This document shows positions 7,799 to 58,192 of a stretch of 64,000 nt of DNA, one piece after another; positions within the stretch are counted from its first letter, which is position 1; the number at the start of each line of letters is the position of its first letter. Position numbers and translations under genes: made by a program. The DNA lies in NCBI RefSeq assembly GCF_024223415.1, contig NZ_CP100500.1. One strand, 5' to 3'. This DNA comes from Escherichia coli. Its GTDB lineage: Bacteria; Pseudomonadota; Gammaproteobacteria; Enterobacterales; Enterobacteriaceae. The notes below the pieces were generated by a model. That model saw only the letters and a list, made by a program, of their open reading frames with translations, was not told where the DNA came from and did not search any database.

Positions 7799-8347
7799 CT
7801 ACCAGTGCCGTGCTGGCCCGGTATCAATATGCACAAAGTTACTACGTGGGTAATATCCTACACCACCTGCGCGCATAGATAACGCGGCTTTGCGAATATT
7901 GCTTAACGCGATACCTTCAATATGGAAATCCATCGCCTGGCCTTTAGTGTGATAGCTTTTCTTCGCTACTCCACGGCTGCGGGCGCGTAGTTCATTGTTG
8001 GTATCAATGGAACGATAACCGGAAATGAGTTGCACCGGTTTGCGCGTGCCTAATAACCCTTGCAGGCGATACAACTGGTCGAATAATCCTGGGTCGATGG
8101 ACTTTATTTTGTTCGCGCGGTAATCGCGGAAAAAATGGTTAAGTTTTGCCAATTCTTCCTGAATATAGCCTCTGCCATCGAAAAACTCCGCTTTGATTGA
8201 CTCTCCGGTATGAAGATTATTGAGTGTCAAAATGCGCGGGCGTGGGGTAGAGAGTGTTGCAAACGCAGGGGTCGGCAGGATGGCGGCACCGAGTGCAACG
8301 CCACCAAGCGCCAGCAATTTGCGGCGATTAGCGTCGAATTTGTCCAT
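7799..8347 (-). CDS. mepK: Peptidoglycan L,D-endopeptidase MepK (YcbK), Tat signal
   Basis: ORF track 7799..8356; start moved to MDKFDANRRKLLALGG (twin-arginine motif), 182 aa. Confidence 0.85.
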   Translation of the reverse strand: MDKFDANRRKLLALGGVALGAAILPTPAFATLSTPRPRILTLNNLHTGESIKAEFFDGRGYIQEELAKLNHFFRDYRANKIKSIDPGLFDQLYRLQGLLGTRKPVQLISGYRSIDTNNELRARSRGVAKKSYHTKGQAMDFHIEGIALSNIRKAALSMRAGGVGYYPRSNFVHIDTGPARHW

Positions 8348-8527
8348 GATAATCAAGTCTACAGGTCAATGTTATCGTTTATATGCACTTCTGGCGCACA
8401 AGAGGCACCTTAACCGCCCGTAAAGCAGACGTCAAGATGACTCAACCCCAGCAGTGACGGGGGCTGCAGAGAACCACCCCCAATCATGCTAATTATTACG
8501 ACAACTGATTTCCCCGAACTACTTCAT

Positions 8528-46548: not shown

Positions 46549-48993
46549 TTACACCTTTTCAACCTGAACAAGGTTTGTATGTGACGGATTCCCCTTAGCG
46601 AGAGGAGACGGACGTTGAGTGGTCAGTACGTTAATACAACCACCCTTATCGACACGTTTTGTATCCGGGTCATACCAGGCACCTTCACCCAGTGCGACCA
46701 CACCCGGCATCATTCGTGGCGTCACTTTCGCCTCAATATGAACCTCACCACGATCGTTAAAGATCCTGACTTTATCGCCGTTGTGGATACCGCGTTTTTG
46801 GGCATCAAGCGGGTTGATCCACATTTCCTGACGGCAAGCCGCTTTCAGCACATCAACGTTGCCGTAAGTTGAGTGAACGCGAGATTTATAGTGGAAACCC
46901 GTAAGCTGCAGCGGATACTGTTTGTTCAGCGGATCCTGATAACTTTCAAAGCCCGGCGTATAGATCGGCAGTGGATCGATCACATCGCCTTCTGGCAATT
47001 CCCAGGTAGCGGCAATGTCAGCCAGCGCCTGCGAATAAATCTCAATTTTACCCGATGGCGTGGTCAGTGGATTTGCCTGCGGATCTTCACGGAAGGCTTT
47101 ATAAGCAACGTGATGCCCTTGTGGGTCGCGCTTTTTAAAGATCCCCTGCTTGCGGAACTCTTCAAACGTTGGCAGTTCAGGAATCGCTTCCCGCGACTGG
47201 GCATACAGATGCCGCATCCACTCTTCCTGGGTACGGCCTTCAGTAAACTGTTGCTCAACGCCAAGACGTTTTGCCAGTTCGCTGGTCATTTCATAGATGG
47301 TCTTACATTCAAAGCGCGGTTTAATCACCTGATCGTTGAAAATCACGTAAGACATATTCCCGCAGGATGCATCCAGTGCAAAGTCCATCTGTTCGGAAGC
47401 GGTGCAGTCAGGCAGCAGGATGTCAGCATATTTCGCCGATGAGGTCATGTGGCAGTCGATAACCACAATCAGCTCGCACTTCTTATCATCCTGGAGGATT
47501 TCATGGGTACGGTTGATTTCAGAATGCTGGTTAATCAGGCAGTTACCGGCATAGTTCCAGATCATTTTGATCGGCACATCCAGCTTATCTTTCCCGCGCA
47601 CACCATCACGCAGCGCCGTCATTTCCGGGCCACGTTCAATGGCATCGGTCCACATAAACATCGAAATGCTGGTCTGGATCGGGTTTTCCAAGGTCGGCAT
47701 ACGGACAAACGGTAAGCTGTATGAACCTTCACGCGCGCCGCTGTTCCCTCCATTAATACCAACGTTACCGGTCAGAATCGCCAGCATCGAGATAGCACGG
47801 GTTGCGATTTCACCGTTAGCGTGACGCTGCGGGCCCCATCCCTGGCTGATAAACGCCGGTTTGGTACTGCCGATTTCACGAGCCAGTTTGATGATTTTGT
47901 CTGCCGGAACACCGGTGATTTGCGAGGCCCATTCCGGTGATTTAGCCACGCCATCTGGCCCTTCACCCAGAATATAAGCTTTATAGTGGCCATTTTTCGG
48001 CGCACTGGCTGGCAGGGTTTTCTCATCGTAGCCAACGCAATATTTATCGAGGAATGCCTGATCCACCAGGTTTTCAGTGATCATGACGTACGCCAGACCG
48101 TTAACCAGTGCGGCATCTGTTCCCGGACGAATAGGGATCCACTCATCTTCGCGCCCGGCACCGGTGTCGGTATAGCGCGGATCGATGATGATCATGCGGG
48201 CATTAGATTTCTGGCGTGCCTGTTCAAGATAGTAAGTCACCCCACCGCCACTCATTCGCGTTTCGCCAGGGTTATTACCAAACAGCACTACCAGCTTACT
48301 GTTTTCGATATCCGACGGGCTGTTGCCATCTGCCCAGCCGCCGTAGGTATAGTTCAGACCTTCCGCAATTTGCGCGGAAGAGTAGTCACCGTAATGGTTC
48401 AGATAACCGCCGCAGCAGTTCATCAGGCGCGCGACCAGGGTATTTCCCGGCGGCCAGGAGCGGGTCATGGTGCCACCCAGCGTACCGGTGCCATAGTTCA
48501 GATAGATGGATTCGTTGCCGTACTCTTTGATCAGGCGCTGCATATTGGTCGCGATGATGTCGTAGGCTTCTTCCCAGCTAATGCGCTCGAATTTGCCTTC
48601 ACCGCGCGCCCCGACTCGTTTCATCGGATATTTCAGGCGGTCCGGATTATAGACACGGCGACGCATGGAACGCCCACGCAGGCAGGCGCGAACCTGGTGC
48701 AGGCCGTCGTAATTGTCATCGCCGGTATTGTCCGTTTCGACATATTTGATTTCACCGTCCACGACGTGCATACGTAGCGGGCAGCGACTACCACAGTTAA
48801 CTGTACAGGCGCTCCAGATAACCTTTTCGTCTGATTTTGTTGGAATAGCGCTATCGACAGCGTGCGCAATCCGACTAAAAGGTAATGTTAATGCGCTGCT
48901 GGCCATTGCCAGGCCGCCGATCGCTGTCGTTTTTACCAAACCACGGCGACTCACCTCAGCAGCCAATACCGCATCAGGGATTTTCGTTTTCAT
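46549..48993 (-). CDS. dmsA: DMSO reductase catalytic subunit (molybdopterin), Tat signal
   Basis: 814 aa; twin-arginine leader SRRGLVKTTAIGGLAMASSA. Confidence 0.95.
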   Translation of the reverse strand: MKTKIPDAVLAAEVSRRGLVKTTAIGGLAMASSALTLPFSRIAHAVDSAIPTKSDEKVIWSACTVNCGSRCPLRMHVVDGEIKYVETDNTGDDNYDGLHQVRACLRGRSMRRRVYNPDRLKYPMKRVGARGEGKFERISWEEAYDIIATNMQRLIKEYGNESIYLNYGTGTLGGTMTRSWPPGNTLVARLMNCCGGYLNHYGDYSSAQIAEGLNYTYGGWADGNSPSDIENSKLVVLFGNNPGETRMSGGGVTYYLEQARQKSNARMIIIDPRYTDTGAGREDEWIPIRPGTDAALVNGLAYVMITENLVDQAFLDKYCVGYDEKTLPASAPKNGHYKAYILGEGPDGVAKSPEWASQITGVPADKIIKLAREIGSTKPAFISQGWGPQRHANGEIATRAISMLAILTGNVGINGGNSGAREGSYSLPFVRMPTLENPIQTSISMFMWTDAIERGPEMTALRDGVRGKDKLDVPIKMIWNYAGNCLINQHSEINRTHEILQDDKKCELIVVIDCHMTSSAKYADILLPDCTASEQMDFALDASCGNMSYVIFNDQVIKPRFECKTIYEMTSELAKRLGVEQQFTEGRTQEEWMRHLYAQSREAIPELPTFEEFRKQGIFKKRDPQGHHVAYKAFREDPQANPLTTPSGKIEIYSQALADIAATWELPEGDVIDPLPIYTPGFESYQDPLNKQYPLQLTGFHYKSRVHSTYGNVDVLKAACRQEMWINPLDAQKRGIHNGDKVRIFNDRGEVHIEAKVTPRMMPGVVALGEGAWYDPDTKRVDKGGCINVLTTQRPSPLAKGNPSHTNLVQVEKV

Positions 48994-49177: not shown

Positions 49178-49289
49178 AGGGAGACAAAAAAAGCGCCCGC
49201 AGGAGATTTAACGGTACTTACTCCTCTTGCTGATTTCCTTATTTTTCAATAAGTAAACAAAAACAAGGGGAGCAAATTATCACAAATAA

Positions 49290-50285
49290 TTACTGGTCGA
49301 TGGACAGTTTATGGACACTTTCAGCCAGCGGATTAAAGCTGATCGCATCCTGTAAAAAGTCCGGTGAAAAATGCGCATACGTCATCGTTTGCTGAATCGT
49401 GGCGTGACCCAGGATCCTCTGCAACGTGACGATGTTCCCGCCGTTCATCATGAAATGCGTGGCGAACGTGTGCCGCATGACATGCGTGGCCTGCCCTTTG
49501 GGTAAGTCGGGCTTCACCTCCTGAAGGATCTCCCTGAAACTGAGATAATCAACCTGATATAACAGGCCGGTCCGGCGGGTTTTAATTAACGGCACAACGG
49601 AATCAGCTACAGGAACCGAGCGCGATTTCCCGTTCTTTGTGTTAAAGAACGTCACCCTGTTACCCACGATGTGTTCCCCGCGAAGCGTTGACGCCTCTTT
49701 CCATCTGGCCCCGGTCGAAAGGCACAGAATGGCAATGCGTCGTGCATCACCCTCAAGCCGTTTCAGAAGGCGATCAATCTCGTCATCTGAAAGAAAGGCC
49801 ATTTCTGTATTCTGAACCTTGAGTTTACGTATTCCGCGCACAGGGTTTTCGTTATGATAAACCTCCGCGTCAATTAACAACGAAAACATCGCAGATAAGG
49901 CGCACAGGTCGCGATTGATACTGGACGGCATCAGTCCCGCCTGCAACTTATCCGAGCGATACTCAATCATGAATTTTCGTGTCATCTGGCTGGCGCGCGG
50001 GTCCCCCATTTCACGTATCACCTTCTCCAGTCTGGTTCTGTAGGTATCACCATATGCCTGATTACGACCATCAAGCATCCACCACACCTCAATCAGTTCT
50101 GATAACCGCCGTTGATCGGCGGGCCTTGCCTGCCACGGGTTATTGTGGAAATTCTGAAGAACGTATCTTTCGAATTCCTGCGCCTTTGATTTCAGGGTGA
50201 AAATCTTACGAATCCGCCTTCCTCCCGCCCCCTGAGGCCTTACATCAACCTGATAACGTCCGTCTTTGAGTTGCTTAATCGACAT
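49290..50285 (-). CDS. int: P2-family tyrosine integrase
   Basis: ORF track 49290..50294; likely start MSIKQLKDGRY behind GGAGG; catalytic region HVMRHTFATHFMMNGGNI...ILGHATIQQTMTYAHF resembles P2 Int. Confidence 0.9.
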   Translation of the reverse strand: MSIKQLKDGRYQVDVRPQGAGGRRIRKIFTLKSKAQEFERYVLQNFHNNPWQARPADQRRLSELIEVWWMLDGRNQAYGDTYRTRLEKVIREMGDPRASQMTRKFMIEYRSDKLQAGLMPSSINRDLCALSAMFSLLIDAEVYHNENPVRGIRKLKVQNTEMAFLSDDEIDRLLKRLEGDARRIAILCLSTGARWKEASTLRGEHIVGNRVTFFNTKNGKSRSVPVADSVVPLIKTRRTGLLYQVDYLSFREILQEVKPDLPKGQATHVMRHTFATHFMMNGGNIVTLQRILGHATIQQTMTYAHFSPDFLQDAISFNPLAESVHKLSIDQ

Positions 50286-50354
50286 GATCAGCACCTCCGA
50301 CGGATAAACCTGTTAACCCCTGCTTACTGAACGCCGCCCGTTCAATATACAGCG

Positions 50355-50696
50355 TCAGCCAGCATTGCGGCCTGATTGGGGTGATTTTTGGGTATTGCGG
50401 GTTGAAACCTGATCGTCCTCCGACTGCGTGGAGCCATCAAGAGAGAGAGCCGGGGCGATCTGACCGGCAACAGGTAGCGTCTTATCTTTGATTAACCAGA
50501 ACATATATTTTTCAAACCGATCCACTTGAAGGACGGCCTCAACAATCTTTGCTCTGGCGATCTTTTGCCCTGACTCATAATTCCTGACAGTTGCCAGAGA
50601 TAACCCTGTAATATCAGCAAATTGCTTTTGAGTTAGCCCTTCCGTCTTGCGTATCAAACGCAACTTTTTCGCATAGTCTATTGACAAGATACTCAT
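50355..50696 (-). CDS. C: P2 C-type immunity repressor (HTH)
   Basis: 113 aa; HTH LTQKQFADITGLSLATVRNYESG; C-terminal GQIAPAL...SPQSG resembles my recollection of P2 C. Confidence 0.8.
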   Translation of the reverse strand: MSILSIDYAKKLRLIRKTEGLTQKQFADITGLSLATVRNYESGQKIARAKIVEAVLQVDRFEKYMFWLIKDKTLPVAGQIAPALSLDGSTQSEDDQVSTRNTQKSPQSGRNAG

Positions 50697-50799
50697 TTGG
50701 GGATTAATCTCCTACAAAAGATAACCGTACGGTTATCTTTACAAGTCATCAAAAATCATCAAAAGGCGCAACAAGCGCACCAATGCAAGAGGATAACAA
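50697..50799. promoter_or_regulatory. Divergent Pc/Pe switch region with operator-like repeats
   Basis: Perfect 18-bp palindrome GATAACCGTACGGTTATC (~50720-50737) and tandem 10-bp direct repeats TCATCAAAAA/TCATCAAAAG (~50746-50765) between C and cox-like starts. Confidence 0.6.
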
Positions 50800-51321
50800 A
50801 TGCGGGAGATTATTGCCGACAAAGAGTTATCTGGCGCTCAACCGGTTCAGGATGATGGCGCGGACAATGAATTCATTGAAGCTGCCAACGACAACGAACA
50901 CCTGGAAACCAAAACCAGACCGTCCTACAAAAAGGGCGCAACCCTACGACTGGACGGCCCAGTCGCAGGACTTGTGTCACTGGAAAAAGGGGCTGCCTAT
51001 CTGGGGGTAACAAAATCTGCGCTACGCGCCGCCATTCAGCGCGGGCAGATGCCGGGTCACAAAACGCGCTCAAATCCCGAAGATGAAAAGTCAGACGGTA
51101 CATGGTGGTTTAACGCCAAAGCCTGGGACGAACTAGCCGACGAACTACTGGAGTGCGAACCGCCAGAGTGGCACAACTGGAAAAGCTACTGGACGTACGA
51201 CCGCAAGAAAAGAAAGTTTTCACCGGCAAACAAGGAGGACTGCCAGACCGTTAAAGGTAAGCAGGTTTACTCCCCCAGAGTTTCAAAACTGGAGCAACTC
51301 AAAAACAACCAGCCCGGCTAA
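50800..51321 (+). CDS. cox: Cox-like excisionase/regulator with N-terminal extension
   Basis: 173 aa, RBS AGAGGA; central HTH LEKGAAYLGVTKSALRAAIQRGQMP and GTWWFNAKAWDELADELLE resemble P2 Cox, which is ~91 aa. Confidence 0.65.
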   Translation: MREIIADKELSGAQPVQDDGADNEFIEAANDNEHLETKTRPSYKKGATLRLDGPVAGLVSLEKGAAYLGVTKSALRAAIQRGQMPGHKTRSNPEDEKSDGTWWFNAKAWDELADELLECEPPEWHNWKSYWTYDRKKRKFSPANKEDCQTVKGKQVYSPRVSKLEQLKNNQPG

Positions 51322-51329
51322 ACACGAAA

Positions 51330-51536
51330 ATGACCAGCAATATCATCAGCGCCATTCTGACACTTGTTTTTATTGAGATAGGCGTAATAGCGATCTATTT
51401 GTTTCGTAAGTTAACGGGACATGAAGAACGCTTTATTGAACTCAGCATTGAATATATCGCCGCTTATACCAAAGGACTTTTCCCGGCAGCTATTGGGGCG
51501 ATGTTTATAGCGTTTGTTATCTGGTTTATCGGGTGA
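51330..51536 (+). CDS. Small hypothetical membrane protein (2 predicted TM)
   Basis: 68 aa, hydrophobic segments ISAILTLVFIEIGVIAIYLF and AAIGAMFIAFVIWFIG. Confidence 0.45.
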   Translation: MTSNIISAILTLVFIEIGVIAIYLFRKLTGHEERFIELSIEYIAAYTKGLFPAAIGAMFIAFVIWFIG

Positions 51537-53371: not shown

Positions 53372-53854
53372 TTATCGGGACAAACCGATCGTAATCGCAG
53401 CCATCATCTTTTCAGCGAAAGAGAGAGATTCACGATGACTGATATTCAGAGACATACAGGCTTTGTTGTACGCCACATTTTCCATGCATTCCAGGACAGG
53501 AGAGTCATGCATCTCAAGCTCTGGAAGGCGTGCCAGCAGAGCTTCCGTACTGAGGAGGGCGCTTTTGGTAATCAACTCATTGTAGCGATGGGCATGCTCA
53601 CTCGCCGCCTGCGCACGTTGCCCGAAACGACATATGAAATTACAGGCTCCGAGAACCACCACCACTGCCCCCAGCACCCAGCCGAAATGCCAGCCGGCTA
53701 CGATGAACGCACCCGCCGCAAGGATCAAAATGTTGATGATCGCATCAAGGCGACGATTGAACACCGCCGCGATGCGCTCCAGCCAGTAGCTGTACCAGAG
53801 ACGGAACATGACCTCATCCCGTTCTCTCGATTTTTTACGTTGGTTGTTTTGCAT
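53372..53854 (-). CDS. Membrane protein encoded antisense to the early operon (candidate moron)
   Basis: 160 aa, RBS GAGGG; two clear TM helices (AIINILILAAGAFIVAGW, GWVLGAVVVVLGACNFI); the overlapping + strand ORF 53354..53989 is low-complexity. Confidence 0.55.
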   Translation of the reverse strand: MQNNQRKKSRERDEVMFRLWYSYWLERIAAVFNRRLDAIINILILAAGAFIVAGWHFGWVLGAVVVVLGACNFICRFGQRAQAASEHAHRYNELITKSALLSTEALLARLPELEMHDSPVLECMENVAYNKACMSLNISHRESLSFAEKMMAAITIGLSR

Positions 53855-54088
53855 GGTGTTTTATCCCTCATCGTCATCGCTCTGCCCCTAATCAGCGCAG
53901 AGTGCAGGGTAACCTGGCTCGTGGAATTTTTGCAGCCAGACATCTTTACCCCCGGGCGTGTTGAACAAAGTGTCCGCCAGATCCACTGAACGGCGGATTC
54001 ATCAATGCTAACACGCCCTTCTTTTCCGGTTGAAGGCGAAAAAACCGGACCATTACCCCGACACAAAACAGAACAACGGAGAACAACT

Positions 54089-54643
54089 ATGCCCGCACTT
54101 AAACCTATGGGTGTATCAGGTGTACCACCGAAGCATGTCAGAGCCTGGACACAACAGGAAGATGCTCTACTGGTCGGTTTATACCCCTCCCACACCGTAC
54201 CAGAACTGACAAAACACTTTCAGAGAACCGGGCCAGCAATACGAAGCCGCATCCGTCTTTTGCTCTCTCAGGGGGTTATCCACACCAAACAACCCCCCCT
54301 GAATACAAAAGAACTCAACACGCTCATCAGGAATCGCCACACAAAAACCATCCGGGAACTCGCGAATGAACTGGGGCGCTCGACATCCACGGTGGGACTG
54401 AACCTGAGAAAAAGAGGGTACCGGTTCAGGAAATACGGGGAACTCCACCACAGAGCCAGATACAGCGATCACCTGGTGGAGTTGGTAACTGAACTGCGCG
54501 ATGAACAGGGGATGACATTCAGCGAAATCAGAAAGTACATCCGGGACACGACCGGGATATCCCTTAAAAGATGGGTCCTCGCCCGGCTTTACGCACGATA
54601 TACCGCCGCTGACACCGTGCTTTGCGAACTGCTACCGGACTGA
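54089..54643 (+). CDS. Putative DNA-binding protein with three HTH-like repeats
   Basis: ORF track 54005..54643; start moved to MPALKPMGVSG behind GGAGAA; repeated helix-turn-helix-like segments (..TVPELTKHFQRTGPAIRSRIRLL.., ..TIRELANELGRSTSTVGLNLRKRG.., ..TFSEIRKYIRDTTGISLKRW..). Confidence 0.55.
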   Translation: MPALKPMGVSGVPPKHVRAWTQQEDALLVGLYPSHTVPELTKHFQRTGPAIRSRIRLLLSQGVIHTKQPPLNTKELNTLIRNRHTKTIRELANELGRSTSTVGLNLRKRGYRFRKYGELHHRARYSDHLVELVTELRDEQGMTFSEIRKYIRDTTGISLKRWVLARLYARYTAADTVLCELLPD

Positions 54644-55681: not shown

Positions 55682-58192
55682 ATGAGCCATCACCACACGC
55701 ACCTGGCGTACCCGTGGAACGCCCCGCTGCCGGTTATTGATCCTGAGACATTCGGCAGAGCATTACCGCAGAAGCCAACCGCATTACAACGGGCAATCCG
55801 TGACTACCTCACCGAAGACATTCGCACTGAGGCCCGGCTGGATGAAGAAACCGTGGCCTTCCTGACAACCACGGACAAAGGTAAGCAAATTAATTCACAC
55901 CTTCACCGGGACGAAGAGCGGCAGATAAGGCTGGATAAGCTGGCACGACACAGACGCGAAAATCCGCCAACGGCGGTATCGGAGGCGATAGCCGAACTTC
56001 GCACCCTGCCCTCGTTTCTTGCCAGTGTGTTGATCCGTGATCTGGCACGACTGAACCGGAAACAGCAAAGTGCCCGCAGTGAAGGTGTAAAAAACAACAG
56101 CGCATACGTGGCCGATAATTTCGTTCGCCGTGGACTGCGTGCGCGCCTGAAACGTATTGAAAGGGTTAACGACCGCTTTGCAACGCCGGCATTCAAAACC
56201 ACCGTCGTGCGCCATCGCCTTGAAGAACTGCTCACACTGCCGCAACTCACCCGTGACGAAATCCAGCGCATCGCCACACTGACAGCCCAGGCATTCGCCG
56301 CAGAATTTGAACGCATATGTGATGAAGTTCTTGAACGGACAGGCAAGGATAATGACAGCCCGGTTATCTGGCTGCTGGCCTACCAGAAGGTGGCACGCAC
56401 AGCCTTAATTCTGGGCGTGGTCCCGCCATACTGGCCGGAACTCGAAATCAGGCACAACCGACGCACACCGCCGGACCCTGAACGGGTTCCGGGTGCGGTA
56501 CTGCGCATCACCTGCGCGACCTGGTGGAACAACCAGTTACGCCACGTCGCCGATCTCTGGCGGGAGGAGTTACTGCGCGCCGCCGGCAGAGTGTCACGTA
56601 AACAATCCCCCTATATCAGCCATGAGTCACTACTGGAGTTCCGCGAGAAGCGCCAGCGCACCCGTGACTTTCTCAAAAGCTGGGATATTGAAAACGAAGA
56701 CGGCGAGCGCCTGAGTCTGGAGGACGTGTACTGGGCTGGCCTGGGTAATCCACGCAACCGCCGCAATGAAATGATGGTCTGCGTCAGAGGGATGGAGATG
56801 GTGGCCGAATTACGGGCTGACGTCGCATTCTTCATCACAGTAACCACCCCTTCCCGCTTTCACAGCGTGAACGAGAACGGCAGCCTGAACCCGAAATACA
56901 ACGGTGCCACAGTACGAGATGCCAGTGATTATCTGGTTTACGACTTCTTCGCAGCCGTAAGAAAAAAAATAAAAAAAGAGGGGCTGGGCTGGTACGGCGT
57001 GCGAACCGCTGAGCCACACCATGACGGCACGCCACACTGGCATATGCTGGTATTCACTTCCCCGGAGAACGCAGAGCGCATCATCGAAATTATGCGCGAA
57101 GCAGCAATTAAATCAGATCGCCACGAACTGGGGGACGATATTTCACCGCGCTTTAAATGCGAGAAGATAGACCCGGAAAAAGGCACACCGGCAAGCTATA
57201 TCGCAACCTATATCGGTAAGAACCTGGACGCCAGCGCTTTCCACAACAATGATCCGAAAACCGGAAAACCTTACGTTGATGAGGAATCCGGGAAAACCAT
57301 GGCGGAAACCGTGGAGAACGCCATTGCCTGGGCAAGCCTTCACCGCATCCGTCAGTTCCAGTTTTTCGGCATTCCGCCCCGCCAGGTATGGCGTGAACTC
57401 CGCCGCCTTGCAAGCCAGATGGAGCGCAACCCGGCATCACCGAAGCACCTCGATCATGACGATATTGACGCCATTATGGCTGCCGCAGATGTGGGATGTT
57501 TTGCCACCTACATCATGAAACAGGGTGGTGTGCTCATTCCGCGCAACCAGTATCTGGTCCGCACCGCATACGAAACCGCAGACGAAGCCAACGACTACGG
57601 TGAATTCCCTCAACGTATCTACGGAATCTGCGCCCCGTCGCTCGGAGAGCGGTACACCATATGCACCCATCCGGACGAGTGGAAACTGGTTAAAAAAGAA
57701 ACAACACCAGACAACCGCACGGGCGAGGGTTTTGACCTTCAGGGCGACCCCGTCGCCCCTTGGACTCGTGGCAATAACTGTCCCCGGGATGAAAAAACAG
57801 ACAATCACGGACCAGAAAACAGGCAGGACCCCGGACGACTGACGCTTCCCGAAGAGAACCTGGAAAGCTGGCTGAATACGTTAAGCAGGGGCGATCGGAG
57901 AAAACTGCGTAATCAGATTAAAAATCAGCCGTCGGGCGCAAAAACCGGACAAAACGACACCACACCGGCATCTGACACCCCTGTAAGGGTGGGGATTGTC
58001 GTGCCTGCGGATACCGCGACGGACACGCAAATCGCCCGCGAACTTGATGCGCTGGGTGTGCAGTTGCCTGACGCGGCCATCATCTCCGTGCGTAACGGTG
58101 CCCGTGTGCGTCTGGATAACGGGGGAACAGCGTACTGGGATGAGTCAGCCCGTCACATCATCACAGAGCAGCCAGTGGAGGCGGGAGCATGA
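55682..58192 (+). CDS. A: P2 gpA-like rolling-circle replication initiator
   Basis: 836 aa; HUH-type motif TPHWHMLVF and paired tyrosines YIATYIGKN; larger than P2 A (~761 aa as I recall). Confidence 0.9.
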   Translation: MSHHHTHLAYPWNAPLPVIDPETFGRALPQKPTALQRAIRDYLTEDIRTEARLDEETVAFLTTTDKGKQINSHLHRDEERQIRLDKLARHRRENPPTAVSEAIAELRTLPSFLASVLIRDLARLNRKQQSARSEGVKNNSAYVADNFVRRGLRARLKRIERVNDRFATPAFKTTVVRHRLEELLTLPQLTRDEIQRIATLTAQAFAAEFERICDEVLERTGKDNDSPVIWLLAYQKVARTALILGVVPPYWPELEIRHNRRTPPDPERVPGAVLRITCATWWNNQLRHVADLWREELLRAAGRVSRKQSPYISHESLLEFREKRQRTRDFLKSWDIENEDGERLSLEDVYWAGLGNPRNRRNEMMVCVRGMEMVAELRADVAFFITVTTPSRFHSVNENGSLNPKYNGATVRDASDYLVYDFFAAVRKKIKKEGLGWYGVRTAEPHHDGTPHWHMLVFTSPENAERIIEIMREAAIKSDRHELGDDISPRFKCEKIDPEKGTPASYIATYIGKNLDASAFHNNDPKTGKPYVDEESGKTMAETVENAIAWASLHRIRQFQFFGIPPRQVWRELRRLASQMERNPASPKHLDHDDIDAIMAAADVGCFATYIMKQGGVLIPRNQYLVRTAYETADEANDYGEFPQRIYGICAPSLGERYTICTHPDEWKLVKKETTPDNRTGEGFDLQGDPVAPWTRGNNCPRDEKTDNHGPENRQDPGRLTLPEENLESWLNTLSRGDRRKLRNQIKNQPSGAKTGQNDTTPASDTPVRVGIVVPADTATDTQIARELDALGVQLPDAAIISVRNGARVRLDNGGTAYWDESARHIITEQPVEAGA

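Follow-up and report, generated by a model that had tools for sequence, protein, structure and literature searches.

The window analysed here, a 64,000-nucleotide stretch of an Escherichia coli contig, contains the left end of a P2-like prophage. Beyond int, the gene of a P2-type tyrosine integrase (49290..50294, minus strand; Pfam Int_N and Phage_integrase), lies the host gene dmsA (46549-48993); on its other side int is followed on the same strand by the gene of a 113-aa immunity repressor of the P2 C type (50355..50696). This repressor was recognized by its Pfam HTH_3 domain and by PHROG 147, and it carries the motif GQIAPAL; PMC3448106 describes GQIAPALA for P2-type C proteins. Divergent from both genes, on the plus strand, is the gene that we refer to as cox-long (50800..51321), the first gene of the early operon, as cox is in P2. 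In phages of the P2 type, Cox is a small protein that takes the dormant prophage into growth and assists in its excision. A 68-aa membrane ORF (51330-51536, plus strand; PHROG 14475) sits directly 3' of it, and to the right, past this ORF, there are genes with Pfam domains DUF4761 and DUF4754; a P2 gpA-like replication gene is found at 55682-58192, and the portal and terminase genes of the prophage are located on the minus strand. The rightward early operon is interrupted by a 160-aa ORF on the minus strand (53372-53854), and this ORF as well as the 68-aa membrane ORF may be accessory cargo. The order int, C-type repressor, cox is kept in nine related loci from E. coli, Salmonella, Yersinia, Serratia and more distant contigs. 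Among the relatives, the Salmonella locus L007 has a gene with the PF25738 'Derepression' domain in its early operon (8222-8494), and the distant locus L017 has, in place of a single repressor gene, four HTH_3 genes in tandem (995-2396) separating int from cox.

Beside int lies the 15-mer AAAAGCGCCCGCAGG (49189..49203), which is a candidate for the att core used in integration between serS and dmsA. In strain LH10-b-1, AAAAGCGCCCGCAGG has a second exact copy at the opposite end of the element (L012:21604), adjacent to the serS terminator; the corresponding end of the window's own prophage is outside the window. We also considered whether the prophage could be the 21-kb remnant annotated in LH10-b-1, and rejected this, as the two sequences diverge after position 54278 and the window keeps gene A, portal and terminase. 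The element of LH10-b-1, around 21 kb in length, has the same int-C-cox module and is without replication, capsid, terminase and lysis genes, while it keeps genes for baseplate, tail fibre, sheath and tube together with ogr.

The cox-long CDS encodes 173 amino acids followed by a stop codon, and the ORF list and the RefSeq CDS agree on its start. The exact protein is present in RefSeq as WP_001206784.1, with the same start and under the name 'Cox family DNA-binding protein', and residues 1-171 match PHROG 23196 (174-position profile, E 1.6e-92). The gene was found at ≥99% identity in 26 of 5,426 complete E. coli genomes, and a word-index search returned 59 homologues, mostly 173-192 aa long, from E. 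coli, Shigella, Yersinia, Salmonella and Serratia. Given these 59 homologues and a whole-gene dN/dS of 0.06-0.19 among close relatives, cox-long is a real gene and not a chance ORF. A preliminary description of this DNA had presented the product as a Cox-like protein about twice as long as P2 Cox, and the lengths (173 versus 91 aa) together with a match to Pfam PF10743 agree with this. The P2 Cox sequence used for comparison is identical to PDB 4LHF chain A, whose 91 residues also bear out the length that had been given for P2 Cox.

Translation of cox-long almost certainly starts at the ATG at position 50800. As read from the sequence, a Shine-Dalgarno element (AAGAGGA, 50787..50793, plus strand) precedes this codon by 6 nt, an in-frame TAA (50794-50796) is located two codons 5' of it, and in ten related loci, from E. 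coli, Yersinia, Serratia, Salmonella and two distant contigs of metagenome or genome origin, both Shine-Dalgarno and ATG are conserved in position. Codons 2-58 of the window's gene include no in-frame ATG, GTG or TTG. The first candidate thereafter, GTG59, is not conserved, the residue being Cys in most relatives, and with a start there the winged helix would lack its first strand; ATG84 falls within the helix-turn-helix. The case that the preliminary description had named against itself, translation from a downstream codon giving a product of ~90 aa, therefore found no support. A wrongly annotated start with a Cox of normal size as the real product could be read into the related loci L002 and L006, where codon 49 is TTG and is preceded by GGAG or GGGG from Lys-Lys-Gly codons, but in the window this codon is CTA. 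Together with the conserved upstream Shine-Dalgarno and ATG, the stop before them and the selection on the N-terminal extension in the annotated frame, this leaves a downstream start close to refuted and extremely improbable. dN/dS was estimated (Nei-Gojobori) for the window, L002, L006 and L009, between which synonymous divergence is 0.5-0.9: codons 13-47 gave 0.16-0.34, codons 130-166 gave 0.03-0.23 and the core gave 0.04-0.10. Given these low values on either side of the core, both tails are translated and under purifying selection.

The part of the protein that identifies it as Cox is a core of codons 56-129 (50965..51186, plus strand), comprising a winged helix-turn-helix and the tryptophan pair W124/W127. 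Pfam Phage_Cox PF10743 matches residues 56-129 only (profile positions 9-86 of 87) with an E-value of 1.5e-8 and 34.8 bits, the gathering cut-off of this family being 27.5 bits, and BLASTP against P2 Cox aligned residues 59-127 to P2 residues 12-84 at 22% identity. In an AlphaFold2 model computed with a 60-sequence alignment, residues 50-120 reached pLDDT values of 79-91, and the best PDB match of this predicted structure in a Foldseek search was P2 Cox itself (4LHF; E 9.9e-4, TM(target) 0.76, rmsd 2.5 Å, 79 ordered residues). W124 and W127 are invariant throughout the 60 sequences, where their counterparts in P2 Cox are W81 and W84, and they are among only eight columns that remain invariant when the alignment is extended from P2 Cox through intermediate to long forms. 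In P2 Cox, W81A and W84A abolish function, and the protomer contacts of its helical filament are made by the extended C-terminal part (Berntsson et al., PMC3936717). The profile match and the model thus show residues 56-129 with the predicted winged-helix fold of Cox, including the oligomerisation tryptophan pair. The sequence similarity to P2 Cox itself is weak: searches of PDB sequences with the single protein and with a 21-sequence profile gave no match, and aligning the profile to the single P2 Cox sequence with hhalign gave a probability of only 7%. Because of these results, the assignment to the Cox family is based on the Pfam profile, pairwise BLASTP, the fold match, the tryptophan pair and the genomic context. 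Of the two regions that had first been said to resemble P2 Cox, the centre and the C-terminal part, the likeness holds for the centre (residues 56-129) and not for the C-terminal part.

The Cox proteins of P2, WPhi and HP1 are small, about 80-91 aa, and at 173 aa the product of cox-long is outside this range, as are other Pfam-positive members of 100-192 aa. Nilsson et al. 2011 distinguish two Cox groups, the second of which is larger and has only six conserved residues in common with the first (PMC3448106). In view of the Pfam-positive members of 100-192 aa and this larger group in the literature, size does not define the Cox family.

On either side of cox-long, the sequence contains candidate sites for the repressor, for Cox and for the integrase. 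Between the repressor gene and cox we noted, by reading the sequence, a perfect 20-bp palindrome, AGATAACCGTACGGTTATCT (50719..50738), as a candidate operator of the divergent repressor. Different palindromes are found at the same place in the relatives L002, L006, L015, L016 and L017, and as both arms change together between loci, these palindromes look like operators of differing immunity types. Four ACAA-type boxes with an exact spacing of 10 bp (ACAA, AAAA, AAAA, ACAA; 50741..50774, plus strand) lie between AGATAACCGTACGGTTATCT and the cox Shine-Dalgarno and are candidate switch Cox boxes. The ACAA motif is short and A-rich, and the two middle boxes of the window are AAAA; three to four perfect ACAA boxes are present at the switch position in L006, L009, L015, L016 and L017, with differing bases in between. 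Phased ACAA/GCAA boxes on the int-proximal att arm (49257..49285, plus strand), of which 49263-49285 matched a slightly relaxed phased-box pattern and which are conserved across loci, are in turn candidate excision Cox boxes. Within the window this relaxed pattern gave 4 matches versus 0.29 expected, all of them in the prophage part. In the 10.5 kb of the Salmonella locus L009, ACAA-N6-ACAA-N6-ACAA had 3 matches versus 0.00 expected, which are confined to the switch and the att arm, the perfect att-arm triplet being placed immediately before the int stop codon; L006 has an ACAA triplet at the switch and the att arm, plus one more place. At the level of sequence, at least three phased direct-repeat boxes are therefore found at both the switch and the att arm. 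The window also has three further perfect phased ACAA-type triplets, all on the plus strand (54063-54086, 55865-55888 and 59787-59810), which may be additional Cox-controlled sites. One of these three is located just 5' of a small DNA-binding-protein gene, past a gene on the minus strand by which the early operon is interrupted.

Inside the 3' end of int there are two direct ATGGACA repeats 11 bp apart (49300..49317, plus strand), which we consider putative Int arm-type sites. This pair is the only match in the window, with 0.02 expected, and it was found in all eight scanned loci that have the region. The last att-arm box ends at 49285, so that the two presumed types of site are ~15 bp apart.

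Recombination directionality factors (RDFs) occupy tandem repeats spaced by one turn, and Apl of phage 186 needs at least three adjacent sites (PMC7498355). Phased ACAA repeats at both the switch and att are accordingly the pattern to be expected for a Cox/Apl protein with a dual purpose, and from their arrangement we infer that Cox binds the ACAA boxes at both places. As with P2 Cox and 186 Apl, the Cox protomers would be arranged head-to-tail on direct repeats spaced by one helical turn; on the four boxes that separate the repressor operator from the cox ribosome-binding site, Cox would silence the repressor's promoter, Pc, and on the three or four boxes of the att arm it would bend the DNA and direct excision. 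A consensus scan of the C-cox spacer found no sigma-70 consensus promoter, and by eye only weak candidates could be named, namely TTGACA at 50681-50686 for Pe and, on the minus strand, TTGGTG-16-GATGAT for Pc. Candidate sites that can be tested are provided by the ACAA boxes of the switch and of att, and by the immunity-specific palindromic operators.

The core of the long Cox is flanked by two tails of opposite charge. Compared with P2 Cox, the protein has ~47 extra residues at the N-terminus (codons 1-47; 50800..50940, plus strand) with a net charge of -5 and a pI of 4.5, and about 39-44 extra residues at the C-terminus (codons 130-173; 51187..51318, plus strand) with a net charge of +7 and a pI of 9.9. 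Both the acidic N-terminal extension of ~45 residues and the C-terminal tail missing from P2 Cox, as they had been predicted from the letters of the sequence, are hereby borne out. The N-terminal extension, as delimited by alignments, AlphaFold2 and dN/dS, begins with a conserved tip in codons 1-12 (consensus MQxFIADKELSD; MQEFIADKELSD in the window), continues into an acidic linker of variable length, into which 12-17 residues are inserted in Salmonella and Serratia, and ends in a short basic patch that adjoins the core. Column identity is 0.82 in the tip (residues 1-12), 0.82 in the core and 0.51 in the linker. The C-terminal tail was delimited by its conserved motif, YWTYDRxKRKF..KEDC..GKRVY..RKSKLEQ in the alignment, along with dN/dS and charge. 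AlphaFold2 predicts the N-terminal tail to be disordered (pLDDT <50 for residues 1-39) and gives the C-terminal tail a pLDDT of 54-61, with a hairpin and a helix weakly predicted; a tandem-dimer run with two copies joined by a Gly-Ser linker had a mean pLDDT of 45.6, which is too low to read any ordering of the tails. Among 51 long members, the net charge ranges from 0 to -15 for the N-terminal extension (mean -7.5) and from +3 to +10 for the C-terminal tail (mean +7.2), and the two charges are weakly anticorrelated (Spearman -0.35, p 0.011, with kinship ignored). Based on this conserved charge and on the purifying selection, the tails probably matter. The suggestion of the preliminary description that the extra segments may add a function beyond excision and the Pc/Pe switch found neither support nor contradiction.

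No Pfam or NCBIfam family matched either tail, and 1.84 billion representative proteins, searched with a profile, yielded 24 clusters only, all of them Cox proteins or fragments of the cox-long gene; in this search space, the tails are not found as modules outside the long-Cox subfamily. As for their origin, two ideas were rejected: a fusion of the C-terminal tail from the small ORF 3' of cox in P2, to which it has no similarity, and an N-terminal extension absorbed from the intergenic spacer, which is about as long as that of P2 (103 versus ~114 bp). Our search of the literature on PF10743 and Cox-family proteins found no paper that addresses the tails.

We tentatively propose, at somewhat below even odds and by analogy, charge and disorder prediction, that the tails modulate Cox's own job rather than add a separate activity. 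The disordered acidic N-terminal tail might compete with DNA for basic surfaces and thereby raise the specificity or the threshold of filament formation. The basic C-terminal tail continues the segment by which P2 Cox packs its protomers, and could add contacts with the DNA backbone or with neighbouring protomers, possibly reaching the integrase at the adjacent arm site (compare the C-terminal tail of lambda Xis).

The tails could also be modules that bind partners and so confer an extra function, with the C-terminal tail recruiting, for example, integrase like the tail of lambda Xis, and the tip MQEFIADKELSD, on a flexible acidic linker, acting as an antirepressor on the C repressor, serving a protease as a degron or binding a host factor. 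The tip is indeed as conserved as the core (0.82 each, versus 0.51 for the linker), and a conserved short peptide on a disordered linker of variable length is how a tethered interaction motif usually looks. In lambda, the Xis site X1 adjoins the Int arm site P2. The ~15 bp between the last ACAA box of the att arm and the first ATGGACA repeat resemble this placement of X1 (PMC7498355). The conservation of the tip, however, is confounded by conservation at the nucleotide level that includes synonymous sites: its Leu-Ser is encoded by TTA TCT in seven of seven close loci, which may reflect a constraint on DNA or RNA. Moreover, long Cox of the P88 type is without the tip motif, and neither tail belongs to any family or occurs outside the long-Cox subfamily, so that we regard partner binding as doubtful.

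The same nucleotide-level conservation suggests another explanation, according to which the N-terminal extension is mostly a tolerated spacer and its first 12 codons are held by overlapping cis elements, either a stem in the mRNA that hides the ribosome-binding site or upstream sequences of Pc, and not by protein function. An island around the cox start (50763-50835) is 89-100% identical in heteroimmune relatives while its flanks are at 50-80%, and it could be the upstream part of Pc or an RBS-masking mRNA stem. Codons 1-12 have zero synonymous differences among L002, L006 and L009, where pS elsewhere is 0.5-0.9. GGATAAC (50791-50797), which overlaps the Shine-Dalgarno, can pair with GTTATCT (50826-50832, codons 10-11), both being invariant, and in P2 the -10 of Pc, as read by eye, is ~40 bp 5' of the cox ATG. 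However, the 7-bp stem that would mask the Shine-Dalgarno has no covariation and a fold z-score of -0.83, and it is absent from the distant loci L011 and L017, both of which have long acidic extensions. In addition, the linker codons 13-47 are under selection in the protein (dN/dS 0.16-0.34), and the linker stays negative despite sequence turnover and changes in length. A spacer held in place by cis elements is hence quite unlikely as the main explanation of the extension.

A further reading would be that the oppositely charged tails make the long Cox a self-regulating switch protein. The acidic N-terminal tail and its tip would then mask the DNA-binding or filament surface, or capture the C repressor, the integrase or a protease, and the basic C-terminal tail would drive filament growth or recruit integrase. 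We consider this unlikely; if true, it would mean that phages of the PhiECO5/P88 type have a thresholded or partner-gated decision on lysis and excision that is absent in P2. An RDF that carries one disordered acidic tail and one basic tail would be a convenient system in which charged-tail tuning of cooperative DNA wrapping and of recombination direction could be followed.

Taken together, we consider it likely, with a probability of roughly 75%, that cox-long encodes the genuine, full-length Cox of a P2-like prophage which is of the PhiECO5/P88 lineage and sits between serS and dmsA, and that this Cox belongs to the known group of larger Cox proteins. This places the prophage within the PhiECO5/P88 lineage of P2-like phages and confirms the long reading frame and its start codon, which has little significance beyond annotation.

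The C-terminal tail of lambda Xis contacts integrase, and a similar contact by the C-terminal tail of the long Cox is a hypothesis by analogy; unlike the long Cox, lambda Xis is not a switch regulator and is without an acidic N-terminal tail, and the sequence of its tail is unrelated. [quoted passage not shown] It differs in belonging to another sequence group (groups 3 and 4 of Nilsson et al. 2011), in the CI-type rather than C-type repressor of its phage, and in having no long tails.

P2 Cox resembles the long Cox in its fold (TM 0.76), in the tryptophan pair and in being encoded by the first early gene opposite C and int. The C-cox spacers are also similar (~114 bp in P2, 103 bp in the window), and phased direct repeats occur at the switch and at att in both, those of the window being candidates. 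The two proteins have only 22% identity, however, and the long Cox carries 47 acidic N-terminal and ~40 basic C-terminal residues in addition. The repressor operator of P2 consists of direct repeats, whereas that of the window is a candidate palindrome. The boxes differ as well, with candidate ACAA in the window and TTAAA(G/C)NCA in P2 (PMC3936717).

The tails are not an all-or-nothing trait, as the lengths of Cox proteins are graded from 91 aa in P2 through forms of 100-112 aa without an N-terminal extension and forms of 118-141 aa (141 in P88) and 167 aa, in which the N-terminus has an acidic extension and the basic tail is short, to forms of 161-192 aa with both long tails. Cox of P88 (Xuanwuvirus, 141 aa) contains the Pfam core at residues 40-120 (E 5e-28). 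P88 Cox and the intermediate forms (100-167 aa) share with the long Cox the motif PPEWHxW, an acidic N-terminal extension and a short basic tail, and their loci have in common with the window's prophage the DUF4761 and DUF4754 neighbours. In contrast to the long Cox, they are without the MQxFIADKELSD tip and the long RxSKLE tail, and P88 Cox is 24% identical to it.

A close known counterpart is the Cox of prophage PhiECO5 in strain UTI89, which adjoins dmsA and encodes a Cox of 173 aa. The site next to dmsA, the order int, repressor, cox and the length of Cox are the same as in the window, and Cox of the PhiECO5 type (L006) is ~75% identical to the long Cox over its full length; the two prophages differ in immunity type, operator palindrome and repressor both being different between the relatives. 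To judge from its length, PhiECO5 Cox would belong to group 2 of Nilsson et al. 2011. With its RefSeq name, its place in PHROG 23196, the larger group of Nilsson et al., and the 173-aa Cox of PhiECO5, the long Cox is not new: it is an ordinary and already annotated member of a described subgroup within a well-known family.
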